Of a stretch of DNA of 64,000 nucleotides, positions 1-31,968 are shown piece by piece. The DNA is taken from positions 135,793 to 199,792 of the forward strand of contig JBGAOY010000001.1 in assembly GCA_044221555.1 (NCBI GenBank). Direction: 5' to 3'. Position 1 is the stretch's first letter. Each line of letters opens with the position of its first letter. Under the pieces are notes generated by a model. It was not told the origin of the DNA. It did not search any database and worked only from the letters and a program-made list of their open reading frames with translations. The DNA is from Acidimicrobiales bacterium. GTDB taxonomy: Bacteria > Actinomycetota > Acidimicrobiia > Acidimicrobiales > DATDAH01. The translations under genes and the position numbers were made by a program.

Positions 1-696
1 CCGGTCGCCGGCGAACCACACGGTGGGCAGCACCACCAGCGGCAGCAGGAAGGCCGACTCGGCCCGGGCGAGGATGGCCAGCCCGCACAGGGCCCCGATG
101 AGGGCGAGGTGGCGGGCGGTGTAGCGGCCCTGGAACCGGTAGAGGGCCAGGAACACCGCGACCAGGAGGAGGGTGGCCAGCGACTCGGACATCACCACGC
201 CGTCGTTCAGCCACAGGTTGGGATAGACCGCGGCCAGGCCCGCGGCGATCAGCCCCACCCGGCTGCTGGCGGTGACGGTGCGGCCGAGCACGCCGATGGC
301 GGCCACCGTGAGGGAGCCGATGAGGGCCATGGCCAGGCGTTGCACCAGCAGGCCCTTGCCGAAGATCAGCACCACCGGGGCCATGGCCAGCGCGGTCAGC
401 GGTGGGTGATCGGCAGCGGGGCCGCCGGCGAAGGGGTGCACGAACCCCCGGCCCTCGGCCAGCCGGATGGCCTGGTTGCTGTAGTAGATGGCGTCGCCGA
501 TGGCCGGCTCGTCGCGCTTGAACACCAGGATGTACGCGATCCGCAGGGCCAGGGCGCCCAGGGCGATGAGGGCGAGCCGGCGGAAGAACGTGGCCCGCTC
601 GGCCGGGGCCGGGGCCGTCGCCGAGGGGCCCGGATCGGGGACGCGTGCGGGTTCGGGCTCGCCGACGTCGGTGCTGCTCGATGGCCGGTCGCTCAA
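1..696 (-). CDS. GT-C fold membrane glycosyltransferase, family 39 / ArnT-PMT-like (5' part only; the gene runs off the left edge)
   Basis: This ORF is absent from the track because it is open at the window edge. My own minus-strand translation reads ...SSTDVGEPEPARVPDPGPS..FFRRLALIALGALALRIAYILVFKRDEPAIGDAIYYSNQAIRLAEGRGFVHPF..DHPPLTALAMAPVVLIFG... That is a typical N-terminus of polyprenyl-phosphate-sugar dependent GT39/GT83 enzymes. The candidate TTG start at 696 overlaps the upstream stop (TTGA). The start is uncertain. Confidence 0.6.
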   Translation of the reverse strand, partial: MSDRPSSSTDVGEPEPARVPDPGPSATAPAPAERATFFRRLALIALGALALRIAYILVFKRDEPAIGDAIYYSNQAIRLAEGRGFVHPFAGGPAADHPPLTALAMAPVVLIFGKGLLVQRLAMALIGSLTVAAIGVLGRTVTASSRVGLIAAGLAAVYPNLWLNDGVVMSESLATLLLVAVFLALYRFQGRYTARHLALIGALCGLAILARAESAFLLPLVVLPTVWFAGDR

Positions 697-3600
697 CCCG
701 CCTCGCCTCCTGGCTCGGGCGCGGACCTGGGGAGGGTAGCGGCGACCACGAGTGCCAGCATCGCCAGCGTCGGCCGGTGGGCCGCGGAGACGGTGTCGAC
801 CCACCCGAAGCCGGCCGGGTTGTGCTGGATCGCCTGGCGCACGACGATCGCCGCGGTCACGAGGCCGAGACCGGCCAGGCCCGCCAGGCCCGCCAGCGTG
901 GAGCGTCGGGCCAGCACGAGGGGCAGCGACACCGCGACGGCCACGACGCCCCACACGGGCGCGACCAGCAACGCGGCCGCCACCCCAGCGGCGACCCACA
1001 CGACGTGGTGGCGCCGATCATCGACCCGCCAGGGGGCGGCGAGGACGGTGGCGCCGCTCACGGGGTGGGCGTCGGTTCGGCGGCGCCGGTCGAGCACGGC
1101 GAGCGCGATGCAGGCAAGGACCGCGACCATCGAGAGCGCCAGGCCCACCCACGTCCAGCGCTGGGGTCGCCAGCGCAGGTCGACGGTGGTGGCGGTGGGC
1201 GACGGATCCAGGAACCACCCGTTCATCCCGCCGCTGATGGCCTCGGGGTCGCCCAGCGACCGACCGTCCACGGTGGCCGACCACCCCGGGTTCCAGCCCA
1301 CACCCTGATCGAGCCAGCACCCGTCGGGGCACGGCCCCACGGTCACGGTCTGGTGGTCGCGCCCGCCGTGGACGGTGACCTCGGGCGGCGCCGGCGCAGT
1401 CGATGCCAGCACCTCCTCGGCCGCGGCGTTGGTGAGCACGAGCCGATCGAGGTCGAGCCCGGTGTCGGCCCCCGCCGCCGCGACCACCCGGTGCCGGCCG
1501 CCGTCGAGGTCGAGGGGCCGATCGGCGTGGTCGCCGCAGCGCTCGACCGTCAGCGTGTCGCCGGCCAGCGCGGCTGCGGTGCTCCCAGAGAAGCGCAGCG
1601 GGACGGCCTCGCCGTCCACCTCGAGCAGGTCGGCGCGACACCCCGAGTCGAGGGAATCCGGGAGGGGCTCGCCGGCCAGGCCCCGTCCGGCGACCTCGGC
1701 GATGCCGGCGGGCAGCAGGGTGACCTCGCCGTAGCGGCGATCGACCGTGGTGGCGCCGTCGGTGGCCGTGATGGTGAGCGTGAGCGGGCCACTGGCCCCC
1801 GCCAGCGCGGCGAGGTCCACCGTCTGGACCGCTTCGTCGGGGTCGACCTGGACGGCGACACGACGGTCGCCCCGGGCCACGTCGAAGGCCGTGACCCGGG
1901 CCAGGTGCGGTCCGGTGGCGACCCGGACGGCGAGCGGCCCCAACCGGGCGCCGTCGTCCACCGGGACGGTCAGGCGCGCGCCGGCGCCCTCCCCGAAGGG
2001 CGTGAGCCAGGCCGTGGCGGGATCCCCGTCGACCGCGGCCCAGCCGCCCGCGGCCGGGTCACCCGCGAGGTGCTCACTGGACTCCGCGGTGTCGACCTCG
2101 AAGAGCGCGGCGAGCACCGCGTCGGAGGCCCGCCGGTCGAGGCGGCCCGTGGGTGCCAGCGACAGCTCCTGGGGGCTGTCGAGGGTGAACGAGCGCACGA
2201 GCGACGCCTCGGGGTCGTGCCGCCAGCGGTTCAGCGGGTCGGCGCGCAGCCGGGTGAGCACGATCGCCGTGGGGGTCTCGCTGCCGACGTGGGAGAGCAC
2301 GTCGGTGGGGAGCACCACGACCTCGCGGCTCGGGCCCAGCGCGGTGCTCACCTCGGCGAAGCCGACGGGTGACTGGCCGGGATACGCGGCGGCGCGGGGC
2401 ACGTTGGTGGCGGTGATCTCCAGTTGCCACCAGTCGGCCGGTGCCCCGAGGTCGACGGGCTGGCCCTCGCCCGTCCTCGAGGACTCCGTGAGTGCGATGG
2501 TGCGGTCCTCCCCCGACGAGGTGGTGAGGCGCACCTCGGTGATCCACCGATTGGCCCGCGGCGCCTGGTCCTGCAGCACGGAGATGGCATCGACCGGCTG
2601 CTCCGCGTCGATGCGCAGGCGCTGCCCCACCGGCTCGGCCCGGTCGGCGACCACCCACGAGGTGCGCGGGTCGCCGTCGACCGCCATCGCGGCCCGTGCT
2701 TCGGGACGGTAGGCGTTGGGCTCTCCGTAGGCGCTGGCGGTGGCCCGCACCGGCCCGTCGGCCACCGCCACCGTGACGTCGTCGTCGGTCTGGTCGGGGA
2801 ACACGTCGAGGCGGTGATCGGCTGGGTCGTCGTCGAGCAACCCGGCGTGGCGGCCGTCCTCGGTGAACCCCCACACGTCCTGGCTGCCGCGCCACTGCCG
2901 CGCCCGGACACGGTTGGTGTCGGTGACCACGTTCAGGTCAGAGGTGGCCACGGCGTCGGCCACGTCGCCGGTGGCCGCCGGGTACCGGATCGTCTCGGAG
3001 CCGTCGATCAGACCGGCGGCGGCGGCGTCGACGGTGCCGTCTCCGCTGCCCGACAGCAACACCACCCGCCCGCCGGCCCGCACGATGGGTCGCGGGTCCT
3101 CGACGGGCACCAGGACCACGGGAGGGACCGCCTCGCCGATGTCGTCGAGGGCCAGCGCTCGCTCGTCCACCATGGCGGCCGCGGGCACGTCCGCGGGCGG
3201 GAGGTTCGGTGCGGGCGTGCCGTAGGCGCGGGGGTCGCCGAGGCCGTCGGCACCCCTGCGGAACAGGTCCCAGGTGGGCTCGGGTCGCGGTGTCTGGTAG
3301 CGCTCGAAGGCGACCTCGGGTGCGACGAGCACGGTGTCGGCCCCGAGGAGCCGGGCGATGGGGGCCACCGCGTCGGGCTCGGCGACGCCGGCCTGGAAGC
3401 GGTCGTCGAGCGCGTAGAGCGTGTCCATGGCCGCGGGGCTGCCCAGTGGCAGCAGGTCGCGGGTGACCAGCGGGCGATTGGTGATCCCCGGTAGCACCGG
3501 GTCGACGGTGTGACCCCAGCGATAGGTCGAGAACTCCATCCCGGGGACCTGCAGGACCCGGTAGCCCGAGGGCAGGGCGTCGAGGTCGCGACCCACCTCG

Positions 3601-4937
3601 GTCCACCAGGTGGGGAGCGACTCGGGGCGGTCGAGGTCGGGGTCGACGAAGCCACCGGTCCAGGCGGCGGGCAGGTTGGCCAGCGCGATCAGCACCACGC
3701 CGACCGCCGCGAAGGTGGCGACCCGGGGCCGCCAGCGGTGCAGCGAGGTGACGAGGGCGCCGATGCCCAGGGCCAGTCCGAACACCACCATCGGCACCGC
3801 CCGCGTGCTGCTGCGCAGGGCCAGCACGAGGGTCGAGCGCGACGACCCGGCCAGGGTGGCGCCGAGCGGTGACGGGTCGTCGATCGGGTAGGCGCCGACC
3901 GCCAGGATCACGCCGGCCGCGAGGCAGAGCGCGGCGAAGCGCCGATGGGCCCACCGCACGAGCACCAGGCCGGCGACGCCGCCGAGCACGAGCAGGAAGC
4001 CGGCGGCGATGAGGAGGGGCTGCTCCTGGTAGGCGCGTGAGGCGGTGGTAGCCGCCGTGACGGGGTCGCCCACGTAGAAGAGCCAGTAGCCGAGCCCCCG
4101 CAGCACCTCGCTTCCCACCGCGGTGGAGCTCACGGCCTCGAGCGTCTCGCTGAACGACAGCGCCGCCGCGCCGTAGCGGGCCTGGACCGCGAGCGCGGTC
4201 ATCCACCAGAGCGAGACCGCGAGCGACAGCCCGCCGAGCGTCAGGACGGTGCGCGCCGCCCGCCGCCAGCTGATGACGTCGCGCGCCGCGGCATCGAGCA
4301 GCCAGAGGAGCGGGACCGGCGCCACCATCAACAGGGCGGTGGCGTTGATGCCACCCACGGTGGCGACGACCAGGGCGAACAGGGCGGCGTCGCGCCCCGG
4401 TGCACGCGTGGCGGGCGTTCGGGTGGCCGCGCCGATCGTGAGGCCCACCAGCCAGCCCAACGCGGCCCAGGGGAGCAGCAGCACCGACGTCCGCGACAGG
4501 TAGGCGAGCACGTACGGCGACAGCTGGTAGACGACGGCCGCGACCAGCGCCGCCCCTCCGGCGAGCCCCAGCCGCCGGGCCGCCCAGCGCAGGCCCGCGC
4601 CGGCGAGGAACAAGATGGTGCCGAGCCAGAGGCGGTGGGCCACCCAGTCGGGCACGCCCAGGCGATCGAAGACCCAGAACCACGGTCCGCTGGGCCACAG
4701 GTAGCCGATGATCTGGTGGGGCACCCAGCCGGCGAACTGCCGGGTGTCGAACGACCACAGGGCATCGGCCATCTGACGGCCCGGGTCGAGGTACAGGTAC
4801 AGCTTGGTGTCGGCCGGGAGACGACCCGCCGCCGCGGTGAGGGCAGGGACGTAGGCGAGCGCGGCCAGCAGGGCCAGTTCGAGGGCGTTGCGTGACCGGC
4901 GGGAGGCGACGTTGGCGAGCCGGCGGCGCCCGGTCAC
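693..4937 (-). CDS. AftD-like (DUF3367-type) giant GT-C glycosyltransferase, paralog 1, with C-terminal discoidin/F5-8-type-C-like modules
   Basis: The ORF is 1414 aa. Its N-terminus reads ..LPADTKLYLYLDPGRQMADALWSFDTRQFAGWVPHQIIGYLWPSGPWFW.. and is followed by many TM helices. The long extracytoplasmic C-terminal half carries repeated DGDPxTxW motifs (AVDGDPRTSWVV, AAVDGDPATAWLT), and a terminal TM cluster follows. This architecture matches mycobacterial AftD. Confidence 0.75.
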   Translation of the reverse strand: MTGRRRLANVASRRSRNALELALLAALAYVPALTAAAGRLPADTKLYLYLDPGRQMADALWSFDTRQFAGWVPHQIIGYLWPSGPWFWVFDRLGVPDWVAHRLWLGTILFLAGAGLRWAARRLGLAGGAALVAAVVYQLSPYVLAYLSRTSVLLLPWAALGWLVGLTIGAATRTPATRAPGRDAALFALVVATVGGINATALLMVAPVPLLWLLDAAARDVISWRRAARTVLTLGGLSLAVSLWWMTALAVQARYGAAALSFSETLEAVSSTAVGSEVLRGLGYWLFYVGDPVTAATTASRAYQEQPLLIAAGFLLVLGGVAGLVLVRWAHRRFAALCLAAGVILAVGAYPIDDPSPLGATLAGSSRSTLVLALRSSTRAVPMVVFGLALGIGALVTSLHRWRPRVATFAAVGVVLIALANLPAAWTGGFVDPDLDRPESLPTWWTEVGRDLDALPSGYRVLQVPGMEFSTYRWGHTVDPVLPGITNRPLVTRDLLPLGSPAAMDTLYALDDRFQAGVAEPDAVAPIARLLGADTVLVAPEVAFERYQTPRPEPTWDLFRRGADGLGDPRAYGTPAPNLPPADVPAAAMVDERALALDDIGEAVPPVVLVPVEDPRPIVRAGGRVVLLSGSGDGTVDAAAAGLIDGSETIRYPAATGDVADAVATSDLNVVTDTNRVRARQWRGSQDVWGFTEDGRHAGLLDDDPADHRLDVFPDQTDDDVTVAVADGPVRATASAYGEPNAYRPEARAAMAVDGDPRTSWVVADRAEPVGQRLRIDAEQPVDAISVLQDQAPRANRWITEVRLTTSSGEDRTIALTESSRTGEGQPVDLGAPADWWQLEITATNVPRAAAYPGQSPVGFAEVSTALGPSREVVVLPTDVLSHVGSETPTAIVLTRLRADPLNRWRHDPEASLVRSFTLDSPQELSLAPTGRLDRRASDAVLAALFEVDTAESSEHLAGDPAAGGWAAVDGDPATAWLTPFGEGAGARLTVPVDDGARLGPLAVRVATGPHLARVTAFDVARGDRRVAVQVDPDEAVQTVDLAALAGASGPLTLTITATDGATTVDRRYGEVTLLPAGIAEVAGRGLAGEPLPDSLDSGCRADLLEVDGEAVPLRFSGSTAAALAGDTLTVERCGDHADRPLDLDGGRHRVVAAAGADTGLDLDRLVLTNAAAEEVLASTAPAPPEVTVHGGRDHQTVTVGPCPDGCWLDQGVGWNPGWSATVDGRSLGDPEAISGGMNGWFLDPSPTATTVDLRWRPQRWTWVGLALSMVAVLACIALAVLDRRRRTDAHPVSGATVLAAPWRVDDRRHHVVWVAAGVAAALLVAPVWGVVAVAVSLPLVLARRSTLAGLAGLAGLGLVTAAIVVRQAIQHNPAGFGWVDTVSAAHRPTLAMLALVVAATLPRSAPEPGGEAG

Positions 4938-6184
4938 GGGATCGCGCCGTACACCCCGTACAGCGCGGTGAGCGTGACCAGACCGGCACCGCAGAGTGCC
5001 AGCAGCAGCGTCCAGCCGTCACGGGACCAGCTGTTGGCGTCGTCGTCCGGCCACCACGCACCGGCGGCCATGAAGAGCGGGAAGGCCGTGTACACGAACC
5101 GGGGTCGGGCCGTCACGGTCGCGGGGATGAGCATCAGGGCCAGCACGACCGCGACGTAGGCCACCATCGGCCAGGGCAGCCGCTTCTTCCAGCCGCACCA
5201 CAGCAGGGCGAACATGGCGAAGAGCGACGCGCTGGTGAGCACGTCGGTGGGCGAGTTCAGCGGATGGGTGAGGAAGCCGAACGTGTCCTGGACCGCCGTG
5301 GCGCCGAAGCTGGTGCCCTCGGCCCACGCCTCGGTCTGCACCCGGAACCAGGCCCACGGCTCGTCGGTGTGGACTCGCAGGTACCACTGGAAGGCGATGA
5401 ACCCGAGGGGTGCCAAGGCGGGGGCGATCAGGGCGCGCCACTCCCTGCGCTGCCAGATGGCCATCAGGGCGGCGACGCCACAGGCGGCGGCCACGGCCAC
5501 CCCGTTGGGGCGGGTGGCGGTGGCCAGCGCGGCCACCAGGCCGGCGATCAGCCACTGCCGCCGGTAGAGCGCCAGCAGGCAACCGGCGGCCAGGAAGATG
5601 AGCATCGCCTCGCTGTAGGCGAAGCTGAGCACGAAGCTGCCCGGGAAGACCGCCATCAGGATCATGGTGCGCTCGGCGGGCCGGATGCCGAACACCTCGC
5701 GGGCCAGGAGGCCCACCATGTAGACGGCCAGCGCGCCGAGCAGGGCGTTCACGAAGATGCCCGCGAACACCTCGCTGCCCGGCAGCACACGGTCGAAGGC
5801 GCCGACGAGCATCGGGTACAGGGGGAAGAAGGCGGCGCGCGCCTCCACCTGGTGGTAGGTGATCGGGCGGGGGATCGACTGCGGGTACCCCCGCCGGACG
5901 ATCTCCATGTACCAGTTGCCGTCCCAGGAGTCGAGCACCTGGACGATGAACGTGCTGGCCCCCTCGGGACGGGGGATGTTGTTGACGTTGGCGTCGACGC
6001 CTCGCTGGGCGGCCACGATGCCGCTGCCGGCGATCACCATCAGGCGCGAGGCCACGTAGGCGATGCCGCCCTTCAGGAGCGCGAGCCGCCAGCGCTTGCG
6101 GTCGTCGGGACCGGCCCGGTCAGGGGTGACCGCCTCGGTAGGGGTCGTCACGGGAGCGTCGGTCTCGGTGGCGGTGGGGGTCAT
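4934..6184 (-). CDS. Polytopic membrane glycosyltransferase, PIG-V/GT-C-like mannosyltransferase family
   Basis: The ORF is 416 aa and multi-TM. The motif DSWDGNWYMEIVRRGYPQ is characteristic of PIG-V-like integral membrane mannosyltransferases. Its stop overlaps the AftD-like start by 4 nt (ATGA). Confidence 0.55.
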   Translation of the reverse strand: MTPTATETDAPVTTPTEAVTPDRAGPDDRKRWRLALLKGGIAYVASRLMVIAGSGIVAAQRGVDANVNNIPRPEGASTFIVQVLDSWDGNWYMEIVRRGYPQSIPRPITYHQVEARAAFFPLYPMLVGAFDRVLPGSEVFAGIFVNALLGALAVYMVGLLAREVFGIRPAERTMILMAVFPGSFVLSFAYSEAMLIFLAAGCLLALYRRQWLIAGLVAALATATRPNGVAVAAACGVAALMAIWQRREWRALIAPALAPLGFIAFQWYLRVHTDEPWAWFRVQTEAWAEGTSFGATAVQDTFGFLTHPLNSPTDVLTSASLFAMFALLWCGWKKRLPWPMVAYVAVVLALMLIPATVTARPRFVYTAFPLFMAAGAWWPDDDANSWSRDGWTLLLALCGAGLVTLTALYGVYGAIP

Positions 6185-6274
6185 CAGGGAGCGGGCCCCC
6201 GGAGCGTGCGGGGCCGGGTGAACCTACCACGGCCACCTCCGGACGAGACCGCAGCGGCGGTGCCGCCGACGGCG

Positions 6275-9157: not shown

Positions 9158-9178
9158 GATGCGCCCGCAGGCCTGCTC

Positions 9179-9655: not shown

Positions 9656-9704
9656 GGGGCCATGTTGGCACCTCCCGGCGACGGAGCCGAACTCGGGCGC
9701 CCTG

Positions 9705-11408: not shown

Positions 11409-11472
11409 GAAGGGGGGTCTCCTCGGTGCGGACGGCGGGGATCAGGGACGGGGCGGAACGGGAGCCGGTGGC

Positions 11473-15965: not shown

Positions 15966-15996
15966 GTCGTGTCTGCTCCCCGGTCCGCCGCCGGCC

Positions 15997-20415: not shown

Positions 20416-20435
20416 TCTTCTACTATCGCCTCTCC
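20416..20435. promoter_or_regulatory. 20-bp divergent spacer between the GT4 and GT2-MT start codons; possible leaderless-transcript promoter core
   Basis: The sequence tcttctactatcgcctctcc is a locally AT-richer patch. A TACTAT hexamer ends 9 nt before the ATG at 20436. No room is left for separate leaders with Shine-Dalgarno sites. Confidence 0.25.
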
Positions 20436-21977: not shown

Positions 21978-24900
21978 CCAGCACGGCGGCCACCGCCTGC
22001 ACGGCCAGGATCTGGGTGGCGGCACCGAAGGCGTTGCCGCCCGGCCCGGCGCTCAGGGCCACCAGGACGCCGGCCAGGAGGTACGACGCCGCCGCCAGCA
22101 CGGGCAGCGAGTCGTCCCTGCCCGGCAGCAGGAGCAGCAGGGGCACGAGCACGGCGAGCGGGCCACCGATCACGAAGCACAGGGCGACGGCCAGGACGAA
22201 CGTGACGAGGGGGGGCAGCACGCGTCCGTCGGCCGGCGCCGGTGCGCGCGCGTGGCGGCGTCTCACGAACGCGAGCACGAAGAGCACCGCCACGAAGACG
22301 GTCCCGAGCGCCAGCGCGCCGCGGTAGTCGCGGTCGGGCGCGAACGACATGGCGACGGTGCCACCGTCGCCCGCCGGGATCACCCAGCCCTGGCGCCAGC
22401 CGTCGAGGCGCACCGGCTCGAGAGCGTGGCCGTCCAGCGTGGCCTCCCACCCCTCGTTGAAGTTCTCGGCCACGGCCAGGTAGGCCTCGTCGCCCGCCGC
22501 GACCGTGGCGGTGCGCTCGACCGTGCCCCACGAGCCGATGTCGACGGCGCGTGGCGCGGCGGCCTCGGCGCGGTCCTGATCGGTATCGGTGGCGTCACGA
22601 AGGCTGAGTCGTGACGGGTCGAACAGGGGCACCGGTGGGGCGTCGATCTCGTGGCGCCCGGCGGTGATGGCGACGGGCTCGCCGCAGCCGGTCATGGTCA
22701 GCGGTCGCGCCTCGAGCAGGTCGCGGACGCGACCCGAGAGCGAGGTCTGGACGACCTGGTCATCGATCGTGATGGCGGGCCCCTCGCCGCAGGGGCGGCG
22801 GAAGGTGGCATCCGGGTCGAGCGATGACACCCCGAGGTCGTCGAGGGCGGCGAACTCCAGCTCGGCGATGCCGACGGCCCGCGACGCGTTCGAGAGCGGG
22901 TCGACCGACGTCGGGAACGAGATCGTGACCTCGTTGGTGACGAGGGCGCGGAACGATCCCTGGCCGGCTCGCCCGATCACGACGTCCCGGTCACCGGCGG
23001 GGCTCTCGAGTCGCAGGCTGCTGGGCCGCTCGGTGGGTGCGCCGGTCGCGGTGAGCAGCACCTGCGACAGCGACCGCGGCTCGTCCCACCGGAGGGTCAC
23101 CGTGGGCACGGGGTTGGAGGGGTCGGAGATCCACGACGTGCTCGGATCGCCGTCGAGCAGTCGTCGAGCCGAGAAGTTGGGTAGGCCGCCCCATGTGGAG
23201 GTGGTGGTGACGGACACCTGGGCGGGCTCGCCCAGCGAATCCACCAGCCGGATGAGGTTGTCGCCGGGAACCGGTGCGGCAGTGCCGCTGAGGGCGAACG
23301 TGGCGGCATCGGGCAGGCGCACGACGCGGCGCAGGCCCACCTCCTCGTCGTGACGGGTCAGGTCGAAGGGGTCGGCCCGGGGGCGGTCGAGCACGACGAG
23401 CGGCGCCGCCGAGCCATCGAGCGCGTCGGGGCGGTCGGCCGGGGTGACGAGGGGCCGCTGCACCTCGAGGCCCGGGATGGTGACCTCGCTGATGCCGGGG
23501 CCCTCGAGGGCGTTGGTGCCGCCCAGCACGTCGGTGATGGTGATGCGGATGAACGAGGTCTCGCCGGACGGGAGCGACACGCCGTTGGCCCCGGCACTGG
23601 CGGCCAGGCTGCTCTCGCGGCGCCCGGCCTCGGTCGCTATCTGCACGGCGGCGACGCGCCCTCGCCCGACCCGTGCCGGAGGGATCTCGATGCCGATGCG
23701 GTCGATCTCGACGGGCTCGTCGAGTCGGAGCTCGATCCACTGGCCGACCGCGCTGCCCGTCCGGGACGGGCGCCAGACGGTGGCGGCGTCGCCGTCGAAC
23801 GCCGCGAACGGCTGCGCCTCGGGGAGGCGGGCGAGGCCGAGGGCGTAGGAGGACGAGGACAGGTCGGCGGCGCCGCGGTTGCGGGCGGTCGTCTGGTGCT
23901 CGATGCCGGGGACCACGAGGCGGTCGTGGGGTGGGCGACCGGTGTTCGGCGAGTCCTCGTCCGGGGTGAGCACGTAGGACGCGTTGGTGTGGACCCGGCC
24001 GAAGTTGACGTCGCGGCGTCCCAGGTCGTCGGTGAGCACCCACCGGTCGTCGGCACCGAGGGGCGCCCGCTCGTCGCCGGAGAGCACGACGGCCCGGTCG
24101 TCCAGTGACTCGGTCTCGTCGACCGGCAGCATGGCCTCGGGGCCGCCGCTCAGCACCTGGGTGTCGGTGGTCGGGTAGGTGACCAGGCGCGACGCCTCGG
24201 GGGCGACCTCGTAGATCTCCACCGCCTGCAGCGGGTTCGCGGCGGCCGCGGCGACGTCGGGCACGAGGCGGGTGGTGACCGCGAGGGGCTCGACCTCGGG
24301 GCCGAACCGCGCGACCCGCTCGATCCCTGGCGTGCCCGCCAGCACCGCCCGCACGATCTGTGGGCGTGGCGACGTGACGCGCCGGACGTCGAGGTCGTTG
24401 CGCACCACCAGGTACCGGACACCGGCACGGGCCAGGTACGGCGCCAGCGCCGGTGAGCGGGTGCCGGTCGTGAGGAGGTTCTCGACCCCGTCCAGGAGGC
24501 GGACGGCGCCCACCGACCCCAGCGGGATGAGGTCGCGCACCGCCCACGGATCCTCGGCGAGCGGCTGCAGCGGCTCGTTGAACGTCCGGCCCCAGTCGTA
24601 CTCGCCGAAGGACGCGCCAGGGAGGATCAGGGTGCGTTCGCCGTCACCGTGGTCGGCCAACCAGTCCGCGGTGTCCTGCCAGTAGCCGGGCAGGTGCTCG
24701 AAGGACCCGAGGGTGGCGACCCGGCCGGACACGACGGGGAACGCCGCCATGCCGATCAGCACGAGGGCGAGGGCGGCGGCGACCGGTCGGGCCCAGACCG
24801 GTCGCGGCCGGCCGGTGCGCTGCCACGATCGCCGCGTCCAGGCGGTGAGGGCGCTGGTGCCGTGGGCGACGCCGAGAGCGATCGTGAGCGCGATGACCGG

Positions 24901-25998
24901 GCTGAACTTGTGGAGGTTGCGGAAGGCCGCGAGGGGCCCGTCGAGCAGGTCGCGCACCTGGCCGGCGGCGCCACCGCCGAACGGGCCGGTGTAGCCCGAG
25001 GCCATCACCGCGGCGCCCACGCCCAGCGTGAGCGCCAGCATGGTGCGCTCGGGCATGTCCCGCCGGGCCAGGCCACCGAGGCCGAGGGCGGTGAACAGCG
25101 CGGTGGCGATCACCGCGGCGGGCAGGGTGATGAGCGACCAGGCGCCCTGCAACCAGGGTCGCCCGCCGACCACCAGGTACCCCACCCAGTTGCCGGTGCC
25201 GCGGAGCACCTCGACCGCGGAGGTGGTGGCGGTGGTGATCGACGCGGTCTCGGTGTACGCCGAGAAGGCCAGGCCGTAGCGACCCTGGAGGAGCAGGGGG
25301 ACGGCCCACCACGTGGTCGCGAGCACCACGGCGAGGGCCCACCAGCCCATCAGCGCCCGGCGCCGTGGTCCGGGCGAGCGGGTGAGCAGCCACAGCGCCG
25401 GGAAGACGAGCACGGCGATGGTGGCGGCCGCGTTGACGCCGCCCATCGCCACGATGGCCAGGCCGGACAGCGCCGCGGCCCGTCGTGTCGACCCGCGCGT
25501 GGCGCCCACGACGAGCGGGAGGACCACCCAGGGGAGCAGGGCGTGGGGCAACTCGACGCCTGACTGGAACCCCACGAGGGTGAGGATCGACGGGCTGAGG
25601 CCGTAGACCGCGGCGCCGACGACGCGGGCGCCGGGGCGGCCGATGTCGAGGGCCTCGAGCAGGCGCAGCGCGCCCCACAGCCCGATCAGCAGCAGCGACG
25701 CGAACCACACCCGCTGCAACACCCAGCCGGGCACACCGATGGCATGGCCGATCGCGAAGTACGGCCCGATCGGGAAGAGGTACCCCGCCGCCTGGTTCTG
25801 GAGCTGGCCGAACGAGGCCGATGGGTCCCAGAGGTGCAGCGTGCGACTCAGGAAGCCGACCGGGTCGACGACCAGGTCGAGCTTGGTGTCGCGCACCAGC
25901 CGGCCGGGGGCCTGCAGGAAGCAGCCGACGACCACGATCGCCGACAGCACGAGCGGCTGGGCGCGCCGGTGGGCCCAGGCCGTGAAGGTGGCGGTCAC
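21868..25998 (-). CDS. AftD-like (DUF3367-type) giant GT-C glycosyltransferase, paralog 2
   Basis: The ORF is 1376 aa. Its N-terminus reads ..GRLVRDTKLDLVVDPVGFLSRTLHLWDPSASFGQLQNQAAGYLFPIGPYF.., followed by a multi-TM core. Discoidin-like motifs are FDGDAATVWRPS and LLDGDPSTSWISD, and C-terminal TMs follow. The start is a GTG overlapping the upstream stop (GTGA). Confidence 0.75.
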   Translation of the reverse strand: MTATFTAWAHRRAQPLVLSAIVVVGCFLQAPGRLVRDTKLDLVVDPVGFLSRTLHLWDPSASFGQLQNQAAGYLFPIGPYFAIGHAIGVPGWVLQRVWFASLLLIGLWGALRLLEALDIGRPGARVVGAAVYGLSPSILTLVGFQSGVELPHALLPWVVLPLVVGATRGSTRRAAALSGLAIVAMGGVNAAATIAVLVFPALWLLTRSPGPRRRALMGWWALAVVLATTWWAVPLLLQGRYGLAFSAYTETASITTATTSAVEVLRGTGNWVGYLVVGGRPWLQGAWSLITLPAAVIATALFTALGLGGLARRDMPERTMLALTLGVGAAVMASGYTGPFGGGAAGQVRDLLDGPLAAFRNLHKFSPVIALTIALGVAHGTSALTAWTRRSWQRTGRPRPVWARPVAAALALVLIGMAAFPVVSGRVATLGSFEHLPGYWQDTADWLADHGDGERTLILPGASFGEYDWGRTFNEPLQPLAEDPWAVRDLIPLGSVGAVRLLDGVENLLTTGTRSPALAPYLARAGVRYLVVRNDLDVRRVTSPRPQIVRAVLAGTPGIERVARFGPEVEPLAVTTRLVPDVAAAAANPLQAVEIYEVAPEASRLVTYPTTDTQVLSGGPEAMLPVDETESLDDRAVVLSGDERAPLGADDRWVLTDDLGRRDVNFGRVHTNASYVLTPDEDSPNTGRPPHDRLVVPGIEHQTTARNRGAADLSSSSYALGLARLPEAQPFAAFDGDAATVWRPSRTGSAVGQWIELRLDEPVEIDRIGIEIPPARVGRGRVAAVQIATEAGRRESSLAASAGANGVSLPSGETSFIRITITDVLGGTNALEGPGISEVTIPGLEVQRPLVTPADRPDALDGSAAPLVVLDRPRADPFDLTRHDEEVGLRRVVRLPDAATFALSGTAAPVPGDNLIRLVDSLGEPAQVSVTTTSTWGGLPNFSARRLLDGDPSTSWISDPSNPVPTVTLRWDEPRSLSQVLLTATGAPTERPSSLRLESPAGDRDVVIGRAGQGSFRALVTNEVTISFPTSVDPLSNASRAVGIAELEFAALDDLGVSSLDPDATFRRPCGEGPAITIDDQVVQTSLSGRVRDLLEARPLTMTGCGEPVAITAGRHEIDAPPVPLFDPSRLSLRDATDTDQDRAEAAAPRAVDIGSWGTVERTATVAAGDEAYLAVAENFNEGWEATLDGHALEPVRLDGWRQGWVIPAGDGGTVAMSFAPDRDYRGALALGTVFVAVLFVLAFVRRRHARAPAPADGRVLPPLVTFVLAVALCFVIGGPLAVLVPLLLLLPGRDDSLPVLAAASYLLAGVLVALSAGPGGNAFGAATQILAVQAVAAVLVSLVPASWPGLPWLRPKPGAAPPAGSTDRTEAPATG

Positions 25999-26726
25999 GG
26001 GGCCGCCAGCAGCTGGTCGTGGAGGGAACGGGCCTGGTCCACCAGGGCCTGCTGGCGCGGCTCGGCGAGACGGGCACTGAGCCGGGCGCGGGCCTCGGCC
26101 CGGCTGGCGTCGGGTCGGGCGACGGCTTCCCGGTAACGCGCTCGGCCGTGCACCGCCAGCTGCTTGTCGTCGATGACCGCGAACACCCGCGCGACGTTGT
26201 CGGGCGTGTGGTCGAAGCGGGCGAAGGAGGTGCCGAACCGGGTGTTGAGCCGATCGACCACCGGGCCGAAATCGGTCGTGGCCTCGTCGAAGGTGACGAG
26301 CAGCAGGTCACCGAGGAGTGGCTGGATCTGGCGGTGGTAGTGGATCCAGTACCGCACGAGGTGCTCGACCCGGTGGTGCGGGTCGGCGATGGCCATCGAC
26401 ACCGCGGCGTCATGCGGGTCGCGCAGCAGCACCATGGTCGGCACCCCCCGGCGGGTCGCGAGCTTCACCTGGGCCGGCAGGTGCACGTGGCTCGCGACCA
26501 CGACGGGTCGCGGCTGGCTGAAGGCGAAGGCCTTCGCCGCGAAGGTGTTGCCCGAGCGGGGGAAGCCCTCGATCACCAACTCGGTGCGCGCCGTGATGGC
26601 GCGTTCGCGAGCGCTCTCCGGGGTCAGGGCCCGCTGGAGCGGGAGGAACGCCGGGGCATCGCCGAGCAATTCGTGGGCGCGGCGGACGAGCCGTCGTCCG
26701 TGCACCCGGGCGGCCGCGGTGCTCAT
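25995..26726 (-). CDS. Sulfotransferase-family protein (putative, PAPS-dependent)
   Basis: The ORF is 243 aa and soluble. LVIEGFPRSGNTFAAK resembles the 5'-phosphosulfate-binding loop (PxSGTT type). VLLRDPHDAAVSMA resembles the 3'-phosphate-binding RxPxDxxxS motif. Confidence 0.5.
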   Translation of the reverse strand: MSTAAARVHGRRLVRRAHELLGDAPAFLPLQRALTPESARERAITARTELVIEGFPRSGNTFAAKAFAFSQPRPVVVASHVHLPAQVKLATRRGVPTMVLLRDPHDAAVSMAIADPHHRVEHLVRYWIHYHRQIQPLLGDLLLVTFDEATTDFGPVVDRLNTRFGTSFARFDHTPDNVARVFAVIDDKQLAVHGRARYREAVARPDASRAEARARLSARLAEPRQQALVDQARSLHDQLLAAP

Positions 26727-28099
26727 CGGTCACCTCCGAGCGCCGCGCCCGCCTGCTCGGTCGAAGGCGACGGGTCGGGTGCCATCCGCCGGCTGACGGC
26801 GGCTGCCGCGCCGACGGCGACCAGGGGCCCGAGGACGAACCACAGGTTGCGGTCGCCGACGGTCACGACGGCGAGACCGGCTGCCAGCACCGGGACCGCG
26901 AGCCACGGCAGGTGCCGCCGCCAGGACTCGCCGAGCGTCGCGCGGCGGGCCCAGAGCTCGTCGACGGCGAGCGCGACGACGACCCCGTCGACCGCGAGCC
27001 TCAGCACCATTCCCGGCCCGCTGCCGACCGTCGCCGGCCAGGTCGCCGCAGCCGACCACCACCCATCGACGGCGTCGTCGACCCCCGAGGCCCAGAGCCA
27101 CAGCCCGAGGACGGCGGCGCCCAGGACCGTCCCGGCCCGAGCCAGTGTCGTGCCCGAGGACACCGGGGCGGGCCAGACGATGATCCACACGACGGCCACG
27201 GGGAGGACGATGAGCGCCTCAGGGCGGGCCAGCGTGCCCACCGCCAGCAGCGCGCCCGCCGTCACCGCTCTGGCCGCGGTGAGCCGGTCGGGCCAGGCGA
27301 GCAGCAGCGCGGTGACCACGGTGAGGCCGGCCAGGGCGCCCGGGAGCGGTTGGGCCCAGACGAGCGGCAGAGCCGCCACGACGAGCCCGGCGAGGATGCC
27401 GGTGCGGCGGCCGCCGAGGCGGGTGCCCAGCACGAGGGTGGCGGCGGCGGTGGCCGCGGTGGTGGCCGCGAGGGCCGCCCCGAGGGCGGAGGGGAACGCG
27501 GCCGCCACCACCAGTGCGGCCGGCGGGTACCGGGTGGCACCGGGGGCGTGCAGGAAGCCCTGGCCGGCCCGCAGCGCCTCGGCGGCGGCCCGTGCCCCAT
27601 CGGGTAGGGCGGCGGGCGCGACGGCCAGCGACACGGCGCCCGCGAGCACGGTGACGGCGGCACACGGCAGCCAGGGGCCGATCCGCTCACGCAGGGCGGC
27701 GTGGTCGGCCGGCTGGGGCGCGGCGGGGCTGAGTGCCCGATCGGAGCGGGCGGCGCGTGCGACCGCGACGAGCAGGCTCACGCCCGCGGCCAGACCAGCA
27801 GCCGCACCCCACGGCCGGTCGGCGGCGAAGCTCTGACGGAGGCTGTCGGGGCCCGGCCAGGCGCCGAGCACCGACCCGACGGCCGCGGTCGCCAGGAGGC
27901 CCACCGTGAGCGCGCCCAGCCAGTCGGGGTGACGCCGCCACACCAGCACCGCGAGGGCGGCGATCACGAGGCCGAAGGGGCCGCCGATCAGGAAGCCGCC
28001 GGCGACGACGAGCGTGATCGTCAGCGGCCCTGGTGGGGTGTCGCGTCCGGGCTGCGGTGCGGGGTCGAGCTCGTCTCGGGGGATGGGGGTGGCGGTCAC
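26723..28099 (-). CDS. Polytopic Ala-rich integral membrane protein, possibly GT-C/ArnT-like
   Basis: The ORF is 458 aa with 10 or more hydrophobic segments. It is translationally coupled on both sides by 4-nt overlaps. The family was not recognised with confidence. Confidence 0.5.
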   Translation of the reverse strand: MTATPIPRDELDPAPQPGRDTPPGPLTITLVVAGGFLIGGPFGLVIAALAVLVWRRHPDWLGALTVGLLATAAVGSVLGAWPGPDSLRQSFAADRPWGAAAGLAAGVSLLVAVARAARSDRALSPAAPQPADHAALRERIGPWLPCAAVTVLAGAVSLAVAPAALPDGARAAAEALRAGQGFLHAPGATRYPPAALVVAAAFPSALGAALAATTAATAAATLVLGTRLGGRRTGILAGLVVAALPLVWAQPLPGALAGLTVVTALLLAWPDRLTAARAVTAGALLAVGTLARPEALIVLPVAVVWIIVWPAPVSSGTTLARAGTVLGAAVLGLWLWASGVDDAVDGWWSAAATWPATVGSGPGMVLRLAVDGVVVALAVDELWARRATLGESWRRHLPWLAVPVLAAGLAVVTVGDRNLWFVLGPLVAVGAAAAVSRRMAPDPSPSTEQAGAALGGDR

Positions 28100-31000
28100 G
28101 CGGGCCGTCTCGGGGAGGTGGTCGGACGGGGGGCCCGAGCCCGGAGTGCCGGGCGCAGCAGGATGGCGACACAGAGGACCACCCCGACGAGCGTGGCCAC
28201 CAGCGCGCCACGGTACGTGCGCTCAGGAGCGTAGGTCAGGTCGACCACGTGCTCGCCCGCGGGGAGGGACCACGTGGCCAGGGTGCCCACGGGCCGTGCC
28301 GGGCCCAGGTCGGCGCCGTCGGCCGTGGCCCGCCAGCCGGGGTCGAAGGACTGCCCCGTGGACACGAGCGTGTCACCCGCGCTCTCCACGCGGAGCCGCA
28401 GGTGACCGGCGTCGCGTGCGAGCACCTCGACCGACGGCTCGTCCACGGCGGCAGCGGGAGCGATCGATCCGGAGGCGAGACCGACGGCGTCGACGATGGC
28501 GTCAGCGGTCGCCAGCACGTGGCGGCCGGCGGGCACGGTGATGCCATCACAGCCGGTGAACGGGACCTGCTCGCCGTCGAGGGCGCGGTCGAGATCTCCC
28601 GGTGCCAGCCGGATGCCTCTGGGGCGACCGTCCACCGTGAGCACCGTGTCGTTGCACGCGGTGCCGTCGACGTCCCCGTCGGCACGGACCGGAGGGCCGT
28701 CGCCGTCGCTGACGGCCACTTCGCTGAGGCGTGCGGGGCGGTTGCCGTTGGCGCCGCCCGCGACGGTGCTGGCCAGGCGGACGACCACCTTGTCCGCCTC
28801 GGTCGGCGGTATTTCGAGCGTGCCGGTCTGCTCGCAGTCGGTGTCGTCGCACCCTTCGGCGGTCTCGAGATCGAGCGACTCCTCCCGCCCCCCGACCAGG
28901 ACGTCGACCCGGTTGACCGGCGAGCTCTCCGCGTCGGCGGGGCTGGTCACCTGGATCCGGCTGACGGTCTGGGTCGGGAACAGGATGGTCAGCTCCTCAC
29001 CGTCGCGGGGCGGCACGGCCCAGGCGGTGGCGGGGTCGCCGTCGATCGCCGCGAGCCCACGGTTCTCGAGTGCGCCCTGCGCTCGGGTCGAGCCGTGGGC
29101 CGAGACGCCGTCGTCCCGGAACCCGGAAAGGAAGCGGTCGAGCTCGAGGTCGGTCGTGCGCACGTCGAGGCCGAGACGGCCCGAGAGATCGAAGGTGCGC
29201 GGTGCGGCCACGCGGAAGCTCCGCCGCACGACGACCTCCTCGTCCTGGGCGCCTGTGCCCTGTACACGGTCGAACAGGTAGCGCAGCGGCGCGTCGGCCA
29301 GCGCGGCGCGCAGGCGGCCGTCGGATGCGGCCGCGGTGGCGACGTCGTCGGGAATGGCGATCACCTCGGTGAGGTCGACGCCGGGGATGGCGATCTCGCG
29401 GAACCCGACCGCCGCCGTGCCGGCGCGGCTCACGTCGTCGATGCGGAGCTCCAGGAAGGTGGTCTGCCGGGCCGGGATGCGGACCTCGGTGGTGCCGCCC
29501 TCCTCGAGGTGGACGGGGACCGGCTCGCCGGAGGAGAAGTGAAGGCTGACATCGGTGACCCGGCGACCGGCGTCGCTGGGGAGAAAGGGCAGGAGCGAGA
29601 GGCGGTCGATCGTCTCCGGCTGCGCGAACTGGACACGGAGGAAGGCGCCGGTGGGGTCCTCGAGGCCGCCGGTGAGCCAACTGGTGGTGTAGTTGCCGTC
29701 GAACGCGTTCGCGGGCCGCAGCCAGGGCTGGAAGCCGGTGATCCGTGTGCCCGACGACGATGCCTCGATCGCGGTCGCATCCTGGAACTCGGCCACCGAC
29801 TGGGTCCCCGGCCGCCCGAAGAGGTCCTGGGCCGGCTGGTCGAGGTCCTGGCCTTCGCTCAGCGTGTGCGACTGGGTGGGGACGGCCCCACGGATGCGGG
29901 TGAGGCGCCGGCGGTTCGTGTCGGTGACGACGAGCGGTGATCCGTCATCGAGGGCCTGCAGCAGGGACGCGGCATCGAGGTCGCCCGTGTACGCCACCGG
30001 CCGCTGGCCGTCGAGCACGCCGGCAGCCGCGGCCACGGGCCAGGCGCCACCGTCGCCGGACACCAGCAGCGGCGGCACGTCCGGGCGGGCGAGGCCCGGG
30101 GGTGCGGTGGTGGGCGCGGCGTCGCGCACGGTGTAGATCTCGACGGGCGGGAGCGAGCGCTCGGTGGTGCCCGCGTAGGACCGGTCGGCCGGGTCGACGA
30201 CCGACTGGCCGGCGTCACCGAAGCGCCGGTCGAGCTCGAGGTCGGGGTCGTGGCGGACGAGGTCGAGGTCGCCCGGCCTGACCACCTGCGACTGCTCCCA
30301 GTCGAGGTCGTTGCGGATCAGCACCCGATCGACCCCGAGCGCTCTCGCGATCGGGCCGAGCTCGCCGGGGCCGAGCGTGCCGTCGGCGATCCTCGCCTCG
30401 AGCGCGTCGACCAGGTTCGCCGACTGCGGGCCGCTCAGGGGGAAGGCGTTGGAGATCACGTTCGGGTGGCGGTGCAGGTAGGTGTCGAAGATGTCGTCGC
30501 CCGGCTCGCCCCACCGGTAGGCGGTCTTGGTCGTGCCGGGAAGCACCAGCACGCGCCCGGAGCCGGGTCGGGCGTCGAGGTACGACAAGGCGTCCTGCCA
30601 GTACGTGGGCACGTCGCTGAGGTGGTTGCGCTCGGGGTAGAGGCCGCCGTTCCAGAACGGCAGCGACACGGCGAGCACCACCACCACGGCGACCGCGCCC
30701 GGCAGCGCCCGCCACCCGGGTCGGGTGCGTTCGAGGCGGGGGGCGGCGATGGCGACACCGACCCCCACGAGCGCGGCGACGGCCATCATCAGGCCCGAGC
30801 CGGCCTTGTAGGTGTTCCGCAGCGACGCCAGCCCCGGCACCGCGTCGTAGGCGCGGAGCAGCAGCCAGCCGGTGGGTGGTGGGTCGGACGGCGGGTACGA
30901 GCCCACCATCAGGACCAGGCTGACGAGGGCGAGGGCGCCGAACAGCGAGCGGGCGCGCCACCGTGACTTCCACAGCACCACCGCGGCGGTGACGGGAGCG

Positions 31001-31968
31001 ACGAACGTGACCAGCACGCCCAGGGCGGTCTCGTAGTAGTAGGTGCCGCCGGGCAGGCGCTCTGCGCCCGACGCGTCGCTGAAGTAGCTGAGCCAGAACC
31101 CGAGCCCCCGCCACGACTCCGCCCACGACGACGTCTCGTTGACCCGTTCGGGCAACTCGGTGAACTGCAGCCGCTGGGCCAGGGGGTCGCTGCCGAGCAG
31201 GGTCTTGGCCAGGGCCGCGGCCGTCGTGAGCACGGTGAGCGCAGCGGCGCGTGCCAACCATCCGGCCACCTGGCGCCAGGTGGCCCGACGGTCCACGACG
31301 ACGAGCCAGATCGCCGCGGGCACGAGCCACAGCACGGCGAAGAACGTGCCGGGGGTGTCGGCGTTGCCGGCCGAGAACACGAGGAGCGCGAAGCCGGCGG
31401 CCCACCGCCACGGGCGCGTGCTGCCGACGCCGCGCAGGAACATGACCAGCAGCCACGGCGCGATCGCGTAGTTCCAGAAGAGCACCGACGGCAGCAGGAA
31501 CGTCGCGGTGAAGGGGTTGAACATGTAGAGCAGGCCGGCGAGCAGCGCGGCCGGCCCGACCCTGCCCAGGAAGACCCGCAGCAGGCTCACCATGCCGAGC
31601 CCGGCGATCACCAGCACCCCGGCGTGCCAGACGTGCTCGGTGAGCGGCGCGGAGAGGCCGAGCCCGCGCAGCACGGCGATGGGGTAGCTGACGGGCCAGA
31701 ACTCCTCGCCCACCCGCCCGATCCCGCGGCTGGCGTCCCACAGGCCCGACTCGCGCAGGAGTCGGGCGGCAGGCCCCCAGAACTGCTCGAAGCGGTTGTC
31801 GCCGACGTAGTCGCCGGGGTCGTTGGTGAGGGTGGCGACGAGGGCCAGCGCCGCGAACAGCAGCCCGGTCGGCCAGAGTCGGTCGCGGGTCACGTCGGGC
31901 AGGATCCAGCCGGTCCCGGTGGACGCGGGCGCGCGCAACTGGTCGGGGGTGTCGCGCTCGTGGCTCAT
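28096..31968 (-). CDS. AftD-like giant GT-C glycosyltransferase, divergent paralog 3
   Basis: The ORF is 1290 aa with the same overall architecture: an N-terminal polytopic domain, a large extracytoplasmic region with NAFDGNYTTSWLTG and AAIDGDPATAWAVP discoidin-like motifs, and a C-terminal TM. The first loop is divergent (DYVGDNRFEQFWGPAARLLRESGLWDASRGIG). Confidence 0.6.
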   Translation of the reverse strand: MSHERDTPDQLRAPASTGTGWILPDVTRDRLWPTGLLFAALALVATLTNDPGDYVGDNRFEQFWGPAARLLRESGLWDASRGIGRVGEEFWPVSYPIAVLRGLGLSAPLTEHVWHAGVLVIAGLGMVSLLRVFLGRVGPAALLAGLLYMFNPFTATFLLPSVLFWNYAIAPWLLVMFLRGVGSTRPWRWAAGFALLVFSAGNADTPGTFFAVLWLVPAAIWLVVVDRRATWRQVAGWLARAAALTVLTTAAALAKTLLGSDPLAQRLQFTELPERVNETSSWAESWRGLGFWLSYFSDASGAERLPGGTYYYETALGVLVTFVAPVTAAVVLWKSRWRARSLFGALALVSLVLMVGSYPPSDPPPTGWLLLRAYDAVPGLASLRNTYKAGSGLMMAVAALVGVGVAIAAPRLERTRPGWRALPGAVAVVVVLAVSLPFWNGGLYPERNHLSDVPTYWQDALSYLDARPGSGRVLVLPGTTKTAYRWGEPGDDIFDTYLHRHPNVISNAFPLSGPQSANLVDALEARIADGTLGPGELGPIARALGVDRVLIRNDLDWEQSQVVRPGDLDLVRHDPDLELDRRFGDAGQSVVDPADRSYAGTTERSLPPVEIYTVRDAAPTTAPPGLARPDVPPLLVSGDGGAWPVAAAAGVLDGQRPVAYTGDLDAASLLQALDDGSPLVVTDTNRRRLTRIRGAVPTQSHTLSEGQDLDQPAQDLFGRPGTQSVAEFQDATAIEASSSGTRITGFQPWLRPANAFDGNYTTSWLTGGLEDPTGAFLRVQFAQPETIDRLSLLPFLPSDAGRRVTDVSLHFSSGEPVPVHLEEGGTTEVRIPARQTTFLELRIDDVSRAGTAAVGFREIAIPGVDLTEVIAIPDDVATAAASDGRLRAALADAPLRYLFDRVQGTGAQDEEVVVRRSFRVAAPRTFDLSGRLGLDVRTTDLELDRFLSGFRDDGVSAHGSTRAQGALENRGLAAIDGDPATAWAVPPRDGEELTILFPTQTVSRIQVTSPADAESSPVNRVDVLVGGREESLDLETAEGCDDTDCEQTGTLEIPPTEADKVVVRLASTVAGGANGNRPARLSEVAVSDGDGPPVRADGDVDGTACNDTVLTVDGRPRGIRLAPGDLDRALDGEQVPFTGCDGITVPAGRHVLATADAIVDAVGLASGSIAPAAAVDEPSVEVLARDAGHLRLRVESAGDTLVSTGQSFDPGWRATADGADLGPARPVGTLATWSLPAGEHVVDLTYAPERTYRGALVATLVGVVLCVAILLRPALRARAPRPTTSPRRPA

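Follow-up and report, generated by a model that had tools for sequence, protein, structure and literature searches.

Three AftD-family paralogs, probably of ancient divergence, and their gene neighbourhood in an Acidimicrobiales bacterium

The enzyme AftD is essential in mycobacteria and has potential as a drug target; its exact reaction is still debated. Mycobacteria possess a single AftD. The mycobacterial protein (Rv0236c; PDB codes 6W98, 6WBX and 6WBY) comprises an N-terminal module of ~11 transmembrane (TM) segments with the fold of type C glycosyltransferases (GT-C), extracytoplasmic discoidin-like carbohydrate-binding modules (CBMs) and a bundle of ~5 C-terminal TM segments. In the AftD of M. 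abscessus, residues K39, D41, E251, K361 and D474 are essential and W272 is invariant (AftD paper), and mycobacterial AftD binds acyl carrier protein (ACP). The AftD structure paper listed a homolog from Ilumatobacter, but duplicates within a species were removed, so paralogy was not examined there. Here, we analyse a stretch of 64,000 nucleotides (hereafter the window; contig JBGAOY010000001.1, positions 135,793 to 199,792) of an Acidimicrobiales bacterium. Unlike the mycobacteria, this host is mycolate-free and exhibits three AftD-family genes in the window, designated A1, A2 and A3, with four such genes in its relatives.

In Mycobacteriales, aftD lies in or near a conserved tmaT locus comprising tmaT, lmcA, mmpA, two putative glycosyltransferase genes (cgp_3166 and cgp_3167) and mtrP. 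TmaT, an acyltransferase of the AT3 family in which an R-x10-H motif has been described as catalytic, binds mycobacterial AftD in a 1:1 complex, and this complex is needed for mycolate transport and for arabinogalactan completion. Both the TmaT-AftD interaction and AftD catalysis are required in M. smegmatis. Two preprints of July 2026 place TmaT-bound AftD at a node that couples arabinogalactan synthesis to mycolate export. MmpA (NCgl2761/Rv0226c) resembles the N-terminal membrane part of AftD; an anchoring role has been proposed for this AftD-like membrane domain, and the MmpA paper describes a family without homologs outside corynebacteria and mycobacteria.

Next to its AftD-type genes, the window holds genes of the same kinds as the tmaT-aftD locus. 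They encode a glycosyltransferase of family GT4, a protein with a class I methyltransferase domain, a member of the MmpA family and two AT3 proteins in which the R-x10-H motif is present; no LmcA homolog was identified in the window. In contrast to Mycobacteriales, its host lacks the mycolic acids and trehalose mycolates that would be acetylated or transported, its AT3 genes are coupled to the A3 paralog, and its methyltransferase domain is fused to a GT2 domain. With a probability of roughly 0.6, we propose that AftD-family enzymes of three clades, with divided specificities and dependent on polyprenyl-phosphate sugars, build one or more acylated envelope glycans, A3 acting together with the AT3 proteins and with a polytopic protein designated unk458.

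A1 (positions 693..4937), A2 (21868..25998) and A3 (28096..31968) are minus-strand open reading frames (ORFs) of 1414, 1376 and 1290 amino acids (aa), respectively. The G+C content of the window is ~73%, and the three ORFs exhibit a strong codon-position GC bias (G+C at third codon positions, GC3, of 0.91-0.93), with GC content and codon bias uniform across the copies. All three match the Pfam family GT-C_AftD (PF11847, DUF3367), with scores of 257.8 bits for A1, 754.6 bits for A2 and 215.2 bits for A3 at a gathering cutoff of 26 bits; the matches extend from profile positions 2-5 to 637-654 of 661. The structures of M. abscessus AftD are matched by A2 (6W98, E=1e-169), A1 (6W98, E=3e-43) and A3 (6WBX, E=4e-32, covering residues 37-1286). 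Pairwise BLASTP alignments of the three proteins are near full length, with 26-29% identity and E-values of 9e-69, 8e-74 and 1e-56, so the likeness exceeds low-complexity or TM composition. The three AftD-like paralogs proposed in a first-pass annotation made from the letters alone are thus borne out, and the first-loop acidic residues and the AftD soluble domains are present as well.

With regard to architecture, each protein begins with a block of ~9-11 TM-like segments that ends near residue 440; an extracytoplasmic region of ~800 aa comes next. CBM_AftD (PF24607) is above its cutoff in all three, whereas F5_F8_type_C passes its cutoff of 28.2 bits in A2 and A3 and falls short in A1 (22.7 bits). 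The first-pass annotation reported two or more DG(D/N)xxTxW motifs per protein. There are exactly two in each, at residues 754 and 970 of A1 (both of the DGDxxTxW form), 735 and 949 of A2, and 757 and 976 of A3. The N-terminal GT-C core and the extracytoplasmic region are therefore shared as annotated, but the C-terminal TM segments are uneven: ~4 in A2, ~3 in A1 and just 1 in A3, the TM predictions for these proteins being based on hydropathy only. This shortfall is clade-wide, as 80 of 97 A3-family proteins have 0-1 C-terminal TM segments. A3 is devoid of a multi-helix C-terminal membrane bundle and, having just one C-terminal TM segment, is unlikely to possess the bundle that binds ACP.

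A neighbour-joining tree of the GT-C domain (140 sequences, 660 columns, with bootstrap) comprises four clades, supported by bootstrap values of 96 (A3-type), 95 (A1-type), 93 (A2-type) and 74 (a clade of "second copies" designated A0). The A0 clade is sister to the A1 clade (bootstrap of 93 for A1+A0). The A2 clade includes M. abscessus AftD, the residues of which were taken from its alignment to A2, together with proteins of Streptomyces, Actinoplanes and Patulibacter, and A1 and A3 fall outside it. Accordingly, A2 scores 570 bits against mycobacterial AftD and just 203-242 bits against A1 or A3. As A2 is much closer to mycobacterial AftD than to its neighbours in the window, and as the tree agrees, A1, A2 and A3 are in all likelihood anciently split paralogs rather than recent duplicates, and A2 is the ortholog of AftD from mycobacteria and other Actinomycetia. 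The first-pass annotation had spoken of a triplication and had left it to a phylogeny to tell recent from ancient copies. The three copies in the window stand; a local triplication does not, the copies belonging to three clades that most probably separated long ago. Its suggestion that the copies differ in specificity fits these clades (bootstrap 93-96), each with its own invariant active-site residues.

The orthologs of each copy number in the hundreds, and the nearest genome is an uncultured Microthrixaceae metagenome-assembled genome (93% identity), which places the source genome among those of Microthrixaceae type. The named relatives of A1 and A3 all belong to Acidimicrobiia (Acidimicrobiales, Ilumatobacteraceae and Iamia). 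Those of A2 reach, at ~38-42% identity, Actinomycetia (Streptomyces, Actinoplanes, Phytohabitans, Actinophytocola and Allosaccharopolyspora) and Thermoleophilia (Patulibacter). In this class, which is mycolate-free, the AftD family has expanded to four clades and acquired new partners.

We mapped the essential positions of M. abscessus AftD onto the clade alignment and focused on positions 37, 39, 41, 251, 272, 361, 474 and 475. The canonical A2 clade exhibits D, K, D, E, W, K, D and E at these positions. The A1 and A0 clades exhibit D, K, Y, E, W, R, D and P, a signature that is invariant in 43 A1-clade members and invariant or nearly so in 50 sequences of both clades. The A3 clade exhibits D, R, E, E, W, K, D and D, nearly invariant in 41 sequences. 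In every clade, D37, E251 and W272 vary little or not at all, D37 being replaced by E in 9 of 49 A2-clade members, and positions 39, 41, 361 and 475 carry residues that are fixed in a clade-specific manner. In the window, the five essential residues correspond to K, D, E, K and N474 in A2, to K, Y41, E, R361 and D in A1, and to R39, E41, E, K and D in A3. All three copies thus resemble mycobacterial AftD in carrying PF11847, PF24607, D37, E251 and W272, and differ from it at Y41, R361 and P475 (A1), at R39, E41 and D475 (A3), or at N474 (A2). The D474N change of the window A2, whose full signature is D-K-D-E-W-K-N-E, is lineage-specific: the asparagine is found in this protein and its five closest orthologs, and the aspartate is kept in 42 of the 49 sampled A2-clade members.

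The clade-fixed substitutions indicate purifying selection on differently tuned pockets rather than decay. As they are fixed within each clade, we infer that the pockets may confer distinct donor, acceptor or linkage specificities. Taken together, the changes D41Y, D41E, K361R, E475P and E475D constitute a natural mutational series for residues governing donor or linkage specificity.

A2 and A3 belong to one operon. Six start/stop overlaps of the (A/G)TGA type join seven minus-strand genes, from position 35715 down to 21868, in the order unk397, AT3b, AT3a, A3, unk458, unk243 and A2. The related loci L045 (A2 77% identical) and L047 (A3 50% identical) have this gene order as well, and L043, L044 and L046 (42-47% identity) have modified versions of it. 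AT3a (31965..33197, minus strand; Acyl_transf_3, PF01757, E=2.7e-28) is a membrane acyltransferase with the R-x10-H motif (R22 to H33), coupled to A3 by an ATGA overlap. AT3b (33194..34525, minus strand; PF01757, E=8e-31) also has the motif (R24 to H35), and its orthologs are found in L043, L044 and L045. An AT3 gene lies immediately upstream of the A3-type gene in L045, L046 and L047 and one gene off in L043, and at least one is present at all eight A3-type loci examined. AT3 genes are thus tightly coupled to AftD-type paralogs in Acidimicrobiia.

The closest partner of A3 is unk458 (26723..28099, minus strand), a polytopic protein with ~13 TM segments. It has no Pfam or NCBIfam match and belongs to a rare family with 67 relatives among 1.84 billion representative proteins. 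An AlphaFold2 model built from 35 sequences reached a predicted local distance difference test (pLDDT) value of 86.5. The top 25 Foldseek matches of this model in the PDB are all GT-C enzymes (probability 0.99-1.00, TM-score 0.34-0.48, best E=9e-4), including STT3, AglB, ArnT, AftA, AftD, ALG9, Pmt4, DPY19 and ALG3. As modelled, unk458 therefore has the fold of a GT-C membrane domain. In seven A3-type proteins of 1430-1801 aa (P0155, P0229, P0186, P0164, P0138, P0158 and P0413), unk458 is present as a C-terminal extension, giving two predicted GT-C modules per polypeptide, and no A1-type or A2-type protein carries this extension. These gene fusions and the translational coupling provide good evidence that A3 and unk458 act as one unit with two GT-C modules. 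We also considered unk458 as a split-off C-terminal bundle of AftD. This was rejected, as BLASTP against the A1 and A2 C-termini gave E-values of 0.039 or higher and the predicted fold is that of a full GT-C membrane domain.

A1 lies in a second cluster with PMT_2-type GT-C enzymes. Upstream, a PMT_2 gene (4934..6184, minus strand, 416 aa; PF13231, E=6e-06, 27 bits at a cutoff of 26.1 bits) is coupled to A1 by a GTGA start/stop overlap and has an ortholog in L001 and L039. Directly downstream, the N-terminal part of another (1..696, minus strand; PF13231, E=2.3e-10) is cut by the window edge; in L039 and L001, its complete ortholog of 479 aa comes after the A1 ortholog. In six close relatives, an A0 gene (~1511 aa) is located ~8.4 kb downstream of the A1 ortholog (22653-24245 in L039 and 22708-24272 in L001, corresponding to a site beyond the left edge of the window). 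The interval comprises PMT_2, GT2, DUF2304, methyltransferase, polysaccharide deacetylase and two more PMT_2 genes. As A0 is present in close relatives and the window ends inside the first gene of this interval, the source genome very probably carries four AftD-family genes within ~55 kb.

Between the A1 cluster and the A2/A3 operon, positions 9179-18090 (minus strand) encode an ABC transporter of the Opp/Dpp type (two SBP_bac_5 proteins, two permeases and two ATPases), a cyclophilin and an acyl-CoA synthetase. This interruption is kept in the relatives L001, L039 and L045. Together with A1, A2, A3, unk458, the two PMT_2 proteins (4934-6184 and 1-696) and an MmpA-like protein (38021-39901), the window attains the up to seven GT-C-type enzymes counted in the first-pass annotation. 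The PIG-V-like protein that was part of that count had no Pfam match even at permissive thresholds.

The homology of these genes, their clades, conserved residues and operon, the synteny of the loci and the gene fusions are shown above; from them we infer the activity, donors, product and physical complexes of the AftD set as follows. A1, A2 and A3 would all be active transferases using polyprenyl-phosphate sugars on the outer face of the membrane, each adding a different sugar or linkage to one or several cell-envelope glycans. A3 would work as a unit with unk458 and the two AT3 O-acyltransferases, in one operon with A2, and A1 would work with the PMT_2-type enzymes of the second cluster. Adjacent GT2 and GT4 enzymes and a flippase would supply lipid-linked precursors. 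The resulting polymer would be acylated and might carry methyl or sulfate groups as well. A functional analogy is provided by EmbA, EmbB, EmbC and AftA-C, related GT-C enzymes that divide the linkages or acceptors of one or two envelope polymers. These enzymes belong to different GT-C families (GT53, GT85, GT87 and GT89), whereas the expansion in the window falls within the AftD family itself.

Several points weigh against this proposal. D41, essential in M. abscessus AftD, is a tyrosine in the A1 and A0 clades, and the equally essential D474 is an asparagine in the window A2; some copies may thus have changed or lost their catalytic activity. As the A1 cluster and the A2/A3 operon are ~13 kb apart, with unrelated transporter genes between them, each may contribute to a polymer of its own. 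The AftD paralogs need not be the users of the GT2 donor synthase, which could instead supply the PMT_2 enzymes or unk458. BLASTP and family-profile searches with AT3a and AT3b found no counterpart at the AftD loci of Allosaccharopolyspora and Streptomyces (L040 and L041). The tree was made by neighbour joining only, and distances were saturated in a few of the bootstrap replicates. Finally, the literature offers no activity, substrate or product for AftD homologs outside Mycobacteriales, and nothing on Acidimicrobiia was found.

The strongest alternative is that all three proteins are true arabinofuranosyltransferases, using decaprenyl-phospho-arabinose (DPA) to build a mycobacterial-like arabinan and making different Araf linkages in the manner of EmbA/B/C and AftA-D. 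We consider this appreciably less probable than the proposal above, although the orthology of A2 to a characterised AftD, the conservation of the core residues E251, W272 and D37, the retention of CBM_AftD modules, the family name and the annotation in the source databases all point in its direction. The pocket residues, however, differ between the clades, and each cluster has a GT2 gene resembling polyprenyl-phosphate-sugar synthases, which the DPA route does not need. Literature searches found no report of arabinan, arabinofuranosyltransferase, cell-wall sugars or DprE1 in Acidimicrobiia. Genes of the DPA pathway (UbiA-type, DprE1 and DprE2) are present neither in the window nor in any annotated flanking locus. 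This last argument is weak, as these genes are not linked to aftD in mycobacteria either.

It is rather unlikely that only A2 is an enzyme and that A1, A3 or both are non-catalytic scaffolds or regulators organising the AT3, unk458 and PMT_2 proteins. Such a role would be in line with the replacement of D41 by tyrosine and of K361 by arginine in the A1 and A0 clades, with the missing C-terminal helix bundle of A3, with the anchor function proposed for the AftD-like domain of MmpA, and with the TmaT-AftD interaction being itself functionally required. Nevertheless, the A1, A0 and A3 clades keep D37, E251, W272 and D474 with little or no variation, the substituted positions are fixed per clade as in a retuned rather than a decaying pocket, and M. 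smegmatis requires AftD catalysis too. That the paralogs are redundant copies without distinct roles, from recent duplication or horizontal transfer, is suggested by three or four genes of one family inside ~55 kb, but is effectively refuted by their pairwise identity of just 26-29%, the hundreds of orthologs and separate clade of each copy, the uniform GC content and codon bias, and the retention of the arrangement in genomes whose orthologs share just 42-50% identity.

With regard to the precursor supply envisaged for the AftD-family enzymes of divided specificity, one neighbour is a fusion of a GT2 domain (PF00535) and a class I methyltransferase domain (PF08241) at 20370..21977 on the plus strand, with a probable ATG start at 20436. 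The best NCBIfam matches of the GT2 domain, all below cutoff, are PpgS, AglJ, ArnC and a Dol-P-hexose transferase, and the domain thus resembles polyprenyl-phosphate sugar synthases. The 3' ends of this gene and of A2 overlap convergently by 110 nucleotides (21868-21977). The same fusion is found in L045 and L047, where the convergent overlap with A2 is 134 and 86 nucleotides, respectively. The methyltransferase domain matches AftD-adjacent methyltransferases weakly (E=1e-9 to 1e-11). Two A2-clade proteins, P0334 and P0357 (e.g. from Actinoplanes sp.), are themselves fused to a class I methyltransferase domain, which supports a functional tie between AftD and methyltransferases such as MtrP.

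Next to this gene is a cytoplasmic glycosyltransferase of family GT4 with a GT-B fold (19222..20415, minus strand; PF00534/PF13439), also present in L045 and L047. In BLASTP, it matches GT4 proteins of Allosaccharopolyspora (E=6e-51) and Streptomyces (E=3e-42), both encoded near AftD. It adjoins the gene of a lytic-transglycosylase-like SLT_2 protein (17955..19172, minus strand; PF13406, E=1.2e-07). The position of the SLT_2 gene is kept in L045 (77% identity), and the protein may belong with the cluster.

On the other side of the operon, a divergent unit is headed by a methyltransferase of the Methyltransf_24 family (35841..36644, plus strand; PF13578, E=2.6e-22). It is 84% identical to its counterpart in L045 and 42% identical (E=9e-49) to the product of a gene divergent from AftD in Allosaccharopolyspora. 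The second gene encodes a candidate polysaccharide flippase of the Wzx/MurJ type (36682..38040, plus strand) with ~12 TM segments and a sub-threshold match to PF01943 (E=6e-06); an ortholog with 42% identity adjoins an A3-type gene in L044. The third encodes the MmpA-family protein (38021..39901, plus strand, 626 aa; NCBIfam NF053599, E=3.9e-52). It matches the MmpA model nearly end to end (positions 2-506 of 543) with 177.6 bits, below the equivalog cutoff of 210 bits, and a role in trehalose-lipid transport is implausible in this host. The protein also aligns to the AftD GT-C profile (E=2.9e-11), with an aspartate as the counterpart of E251 and with W272 kept; like MmpA itself, it resembles the N-terminal membrane part of AftD, and it is distantly related to the AftD GT-C domain but truncated. 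It matches a 567-aa protein encoded beside AftD in Allosaccharopolyspora (E=3e-25) and has an ortholog with 46% identity in L044. To judge from these matches, the MmpA family probably extends beyond corynebacteria and mycobacteria.

Relatives of the GT4, Methyltransf_24 and MmpA-family genes thus flank canonical AftD in Actinomycetia too, and these parts of the gene set appear to predate the mycobacterial envelope. A deep-branching, mycolate-free class in which an AftD ortholog still has GT4, methyltransferase and MmpA-family genes around it offers a handle on the function of this module before mycolates. Tentatively, the partnership of AftD and AT3 with MmpA, methyltransferase and GT4 might be an ancestral actinobacterial machine, older than mycolic acids, for building and O-acylating an envelope glycan, which Mycobacteriales would have co-opted to couple arabinogalactan synthesis to mycolate export. 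In Acidimicrobiia, it would have diversified into four clades, and A3, upon losing its C-terminal bundle, would have formed a two-GT-C unit with unk458, the product being an acylated, possibly sulfated or methylated, heteropolysaccharide of the cell wall. As no partner of AT3a and AT3b was found at the two Actinomycetia AftD loci, we do not assign them as TmaT orthologs and claim only membership of the AT3 family. The proposal of divided specificities itself predicts an undescribed envelope glycan in Acidimicrobiia, which are abundant in soils, waters and activated sludge.

Two operon genes have yet to be described here. The first gene of the operon, unk397 (34522..35715, minus strand; GC3 0.92), encodes a protein with one TM segment, the N-terminus of which is acidic and of low complexity; its orthologs are found in L045, L043 and L044 (E=5e-137 to 1e-30). 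The conserved soluble protein unk243 (25995..26726, minus strand) exhibits the motifs EGFPRSGNTF and RDPxDAxxS. By eye, these are similar to the PSB and 3'PB motifs that bind 3'-phosphoadenosine 5'-phosphosulfate (PAPS). Orthologs with 48-76% identity occupy the same position in L043, L044 and L045; the corresponding slot of L047 holds a 241-aa protein without a Pfam family, placed by position alone. Sub-threshold matches to Pfam Sulfotransfer_1 are observed in two of four orthologs (best E=3.4e-4). A profile search of the PDB with unk243 gave chance matches only (hemagglutinin), and a single-sequence AlphaFold2 model had a pLDDT of 36 and was unusable. From its motifs, unk243 is possibly sulfotransferase-like, and the product glycan may be sulfated.

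Other A3-type loci provide further observations. A Sulfotransfer_3 (PF13469) protein adjoins a distant, fused A3-type gene (P0190 locus). Beside another distant A3-type gene, L046 13357-17411 encodes an MBOAT protein, a PP-binding carrier protein, an Acyl_transf_1 protein and a DltD-like protein, a set that looks like a carrier-protein-dependent O-acylation system and is of note given the binding of ACP by mycobacterial AftD. In L042, two short ORFs at 891-1820 (309 aa) and 2770-3300 (176 aa) match separate parts of A3. With an AT3 gene and a canonical AftD close by, the pair looks like the remains of an A3-type paralog.

Searches of the window for Rfam families and tRNA genes gave no match. 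A minus-strand ORF at 35712-36689 ("unk325") was considered as an eighth operon gene and rejected, as its GC3 of 0.74 is antisense-like and the true gene is that of Methyltransf_24 on the plus strand. This artefact illustrates how misleading ORF lists can be at 73% G+C.

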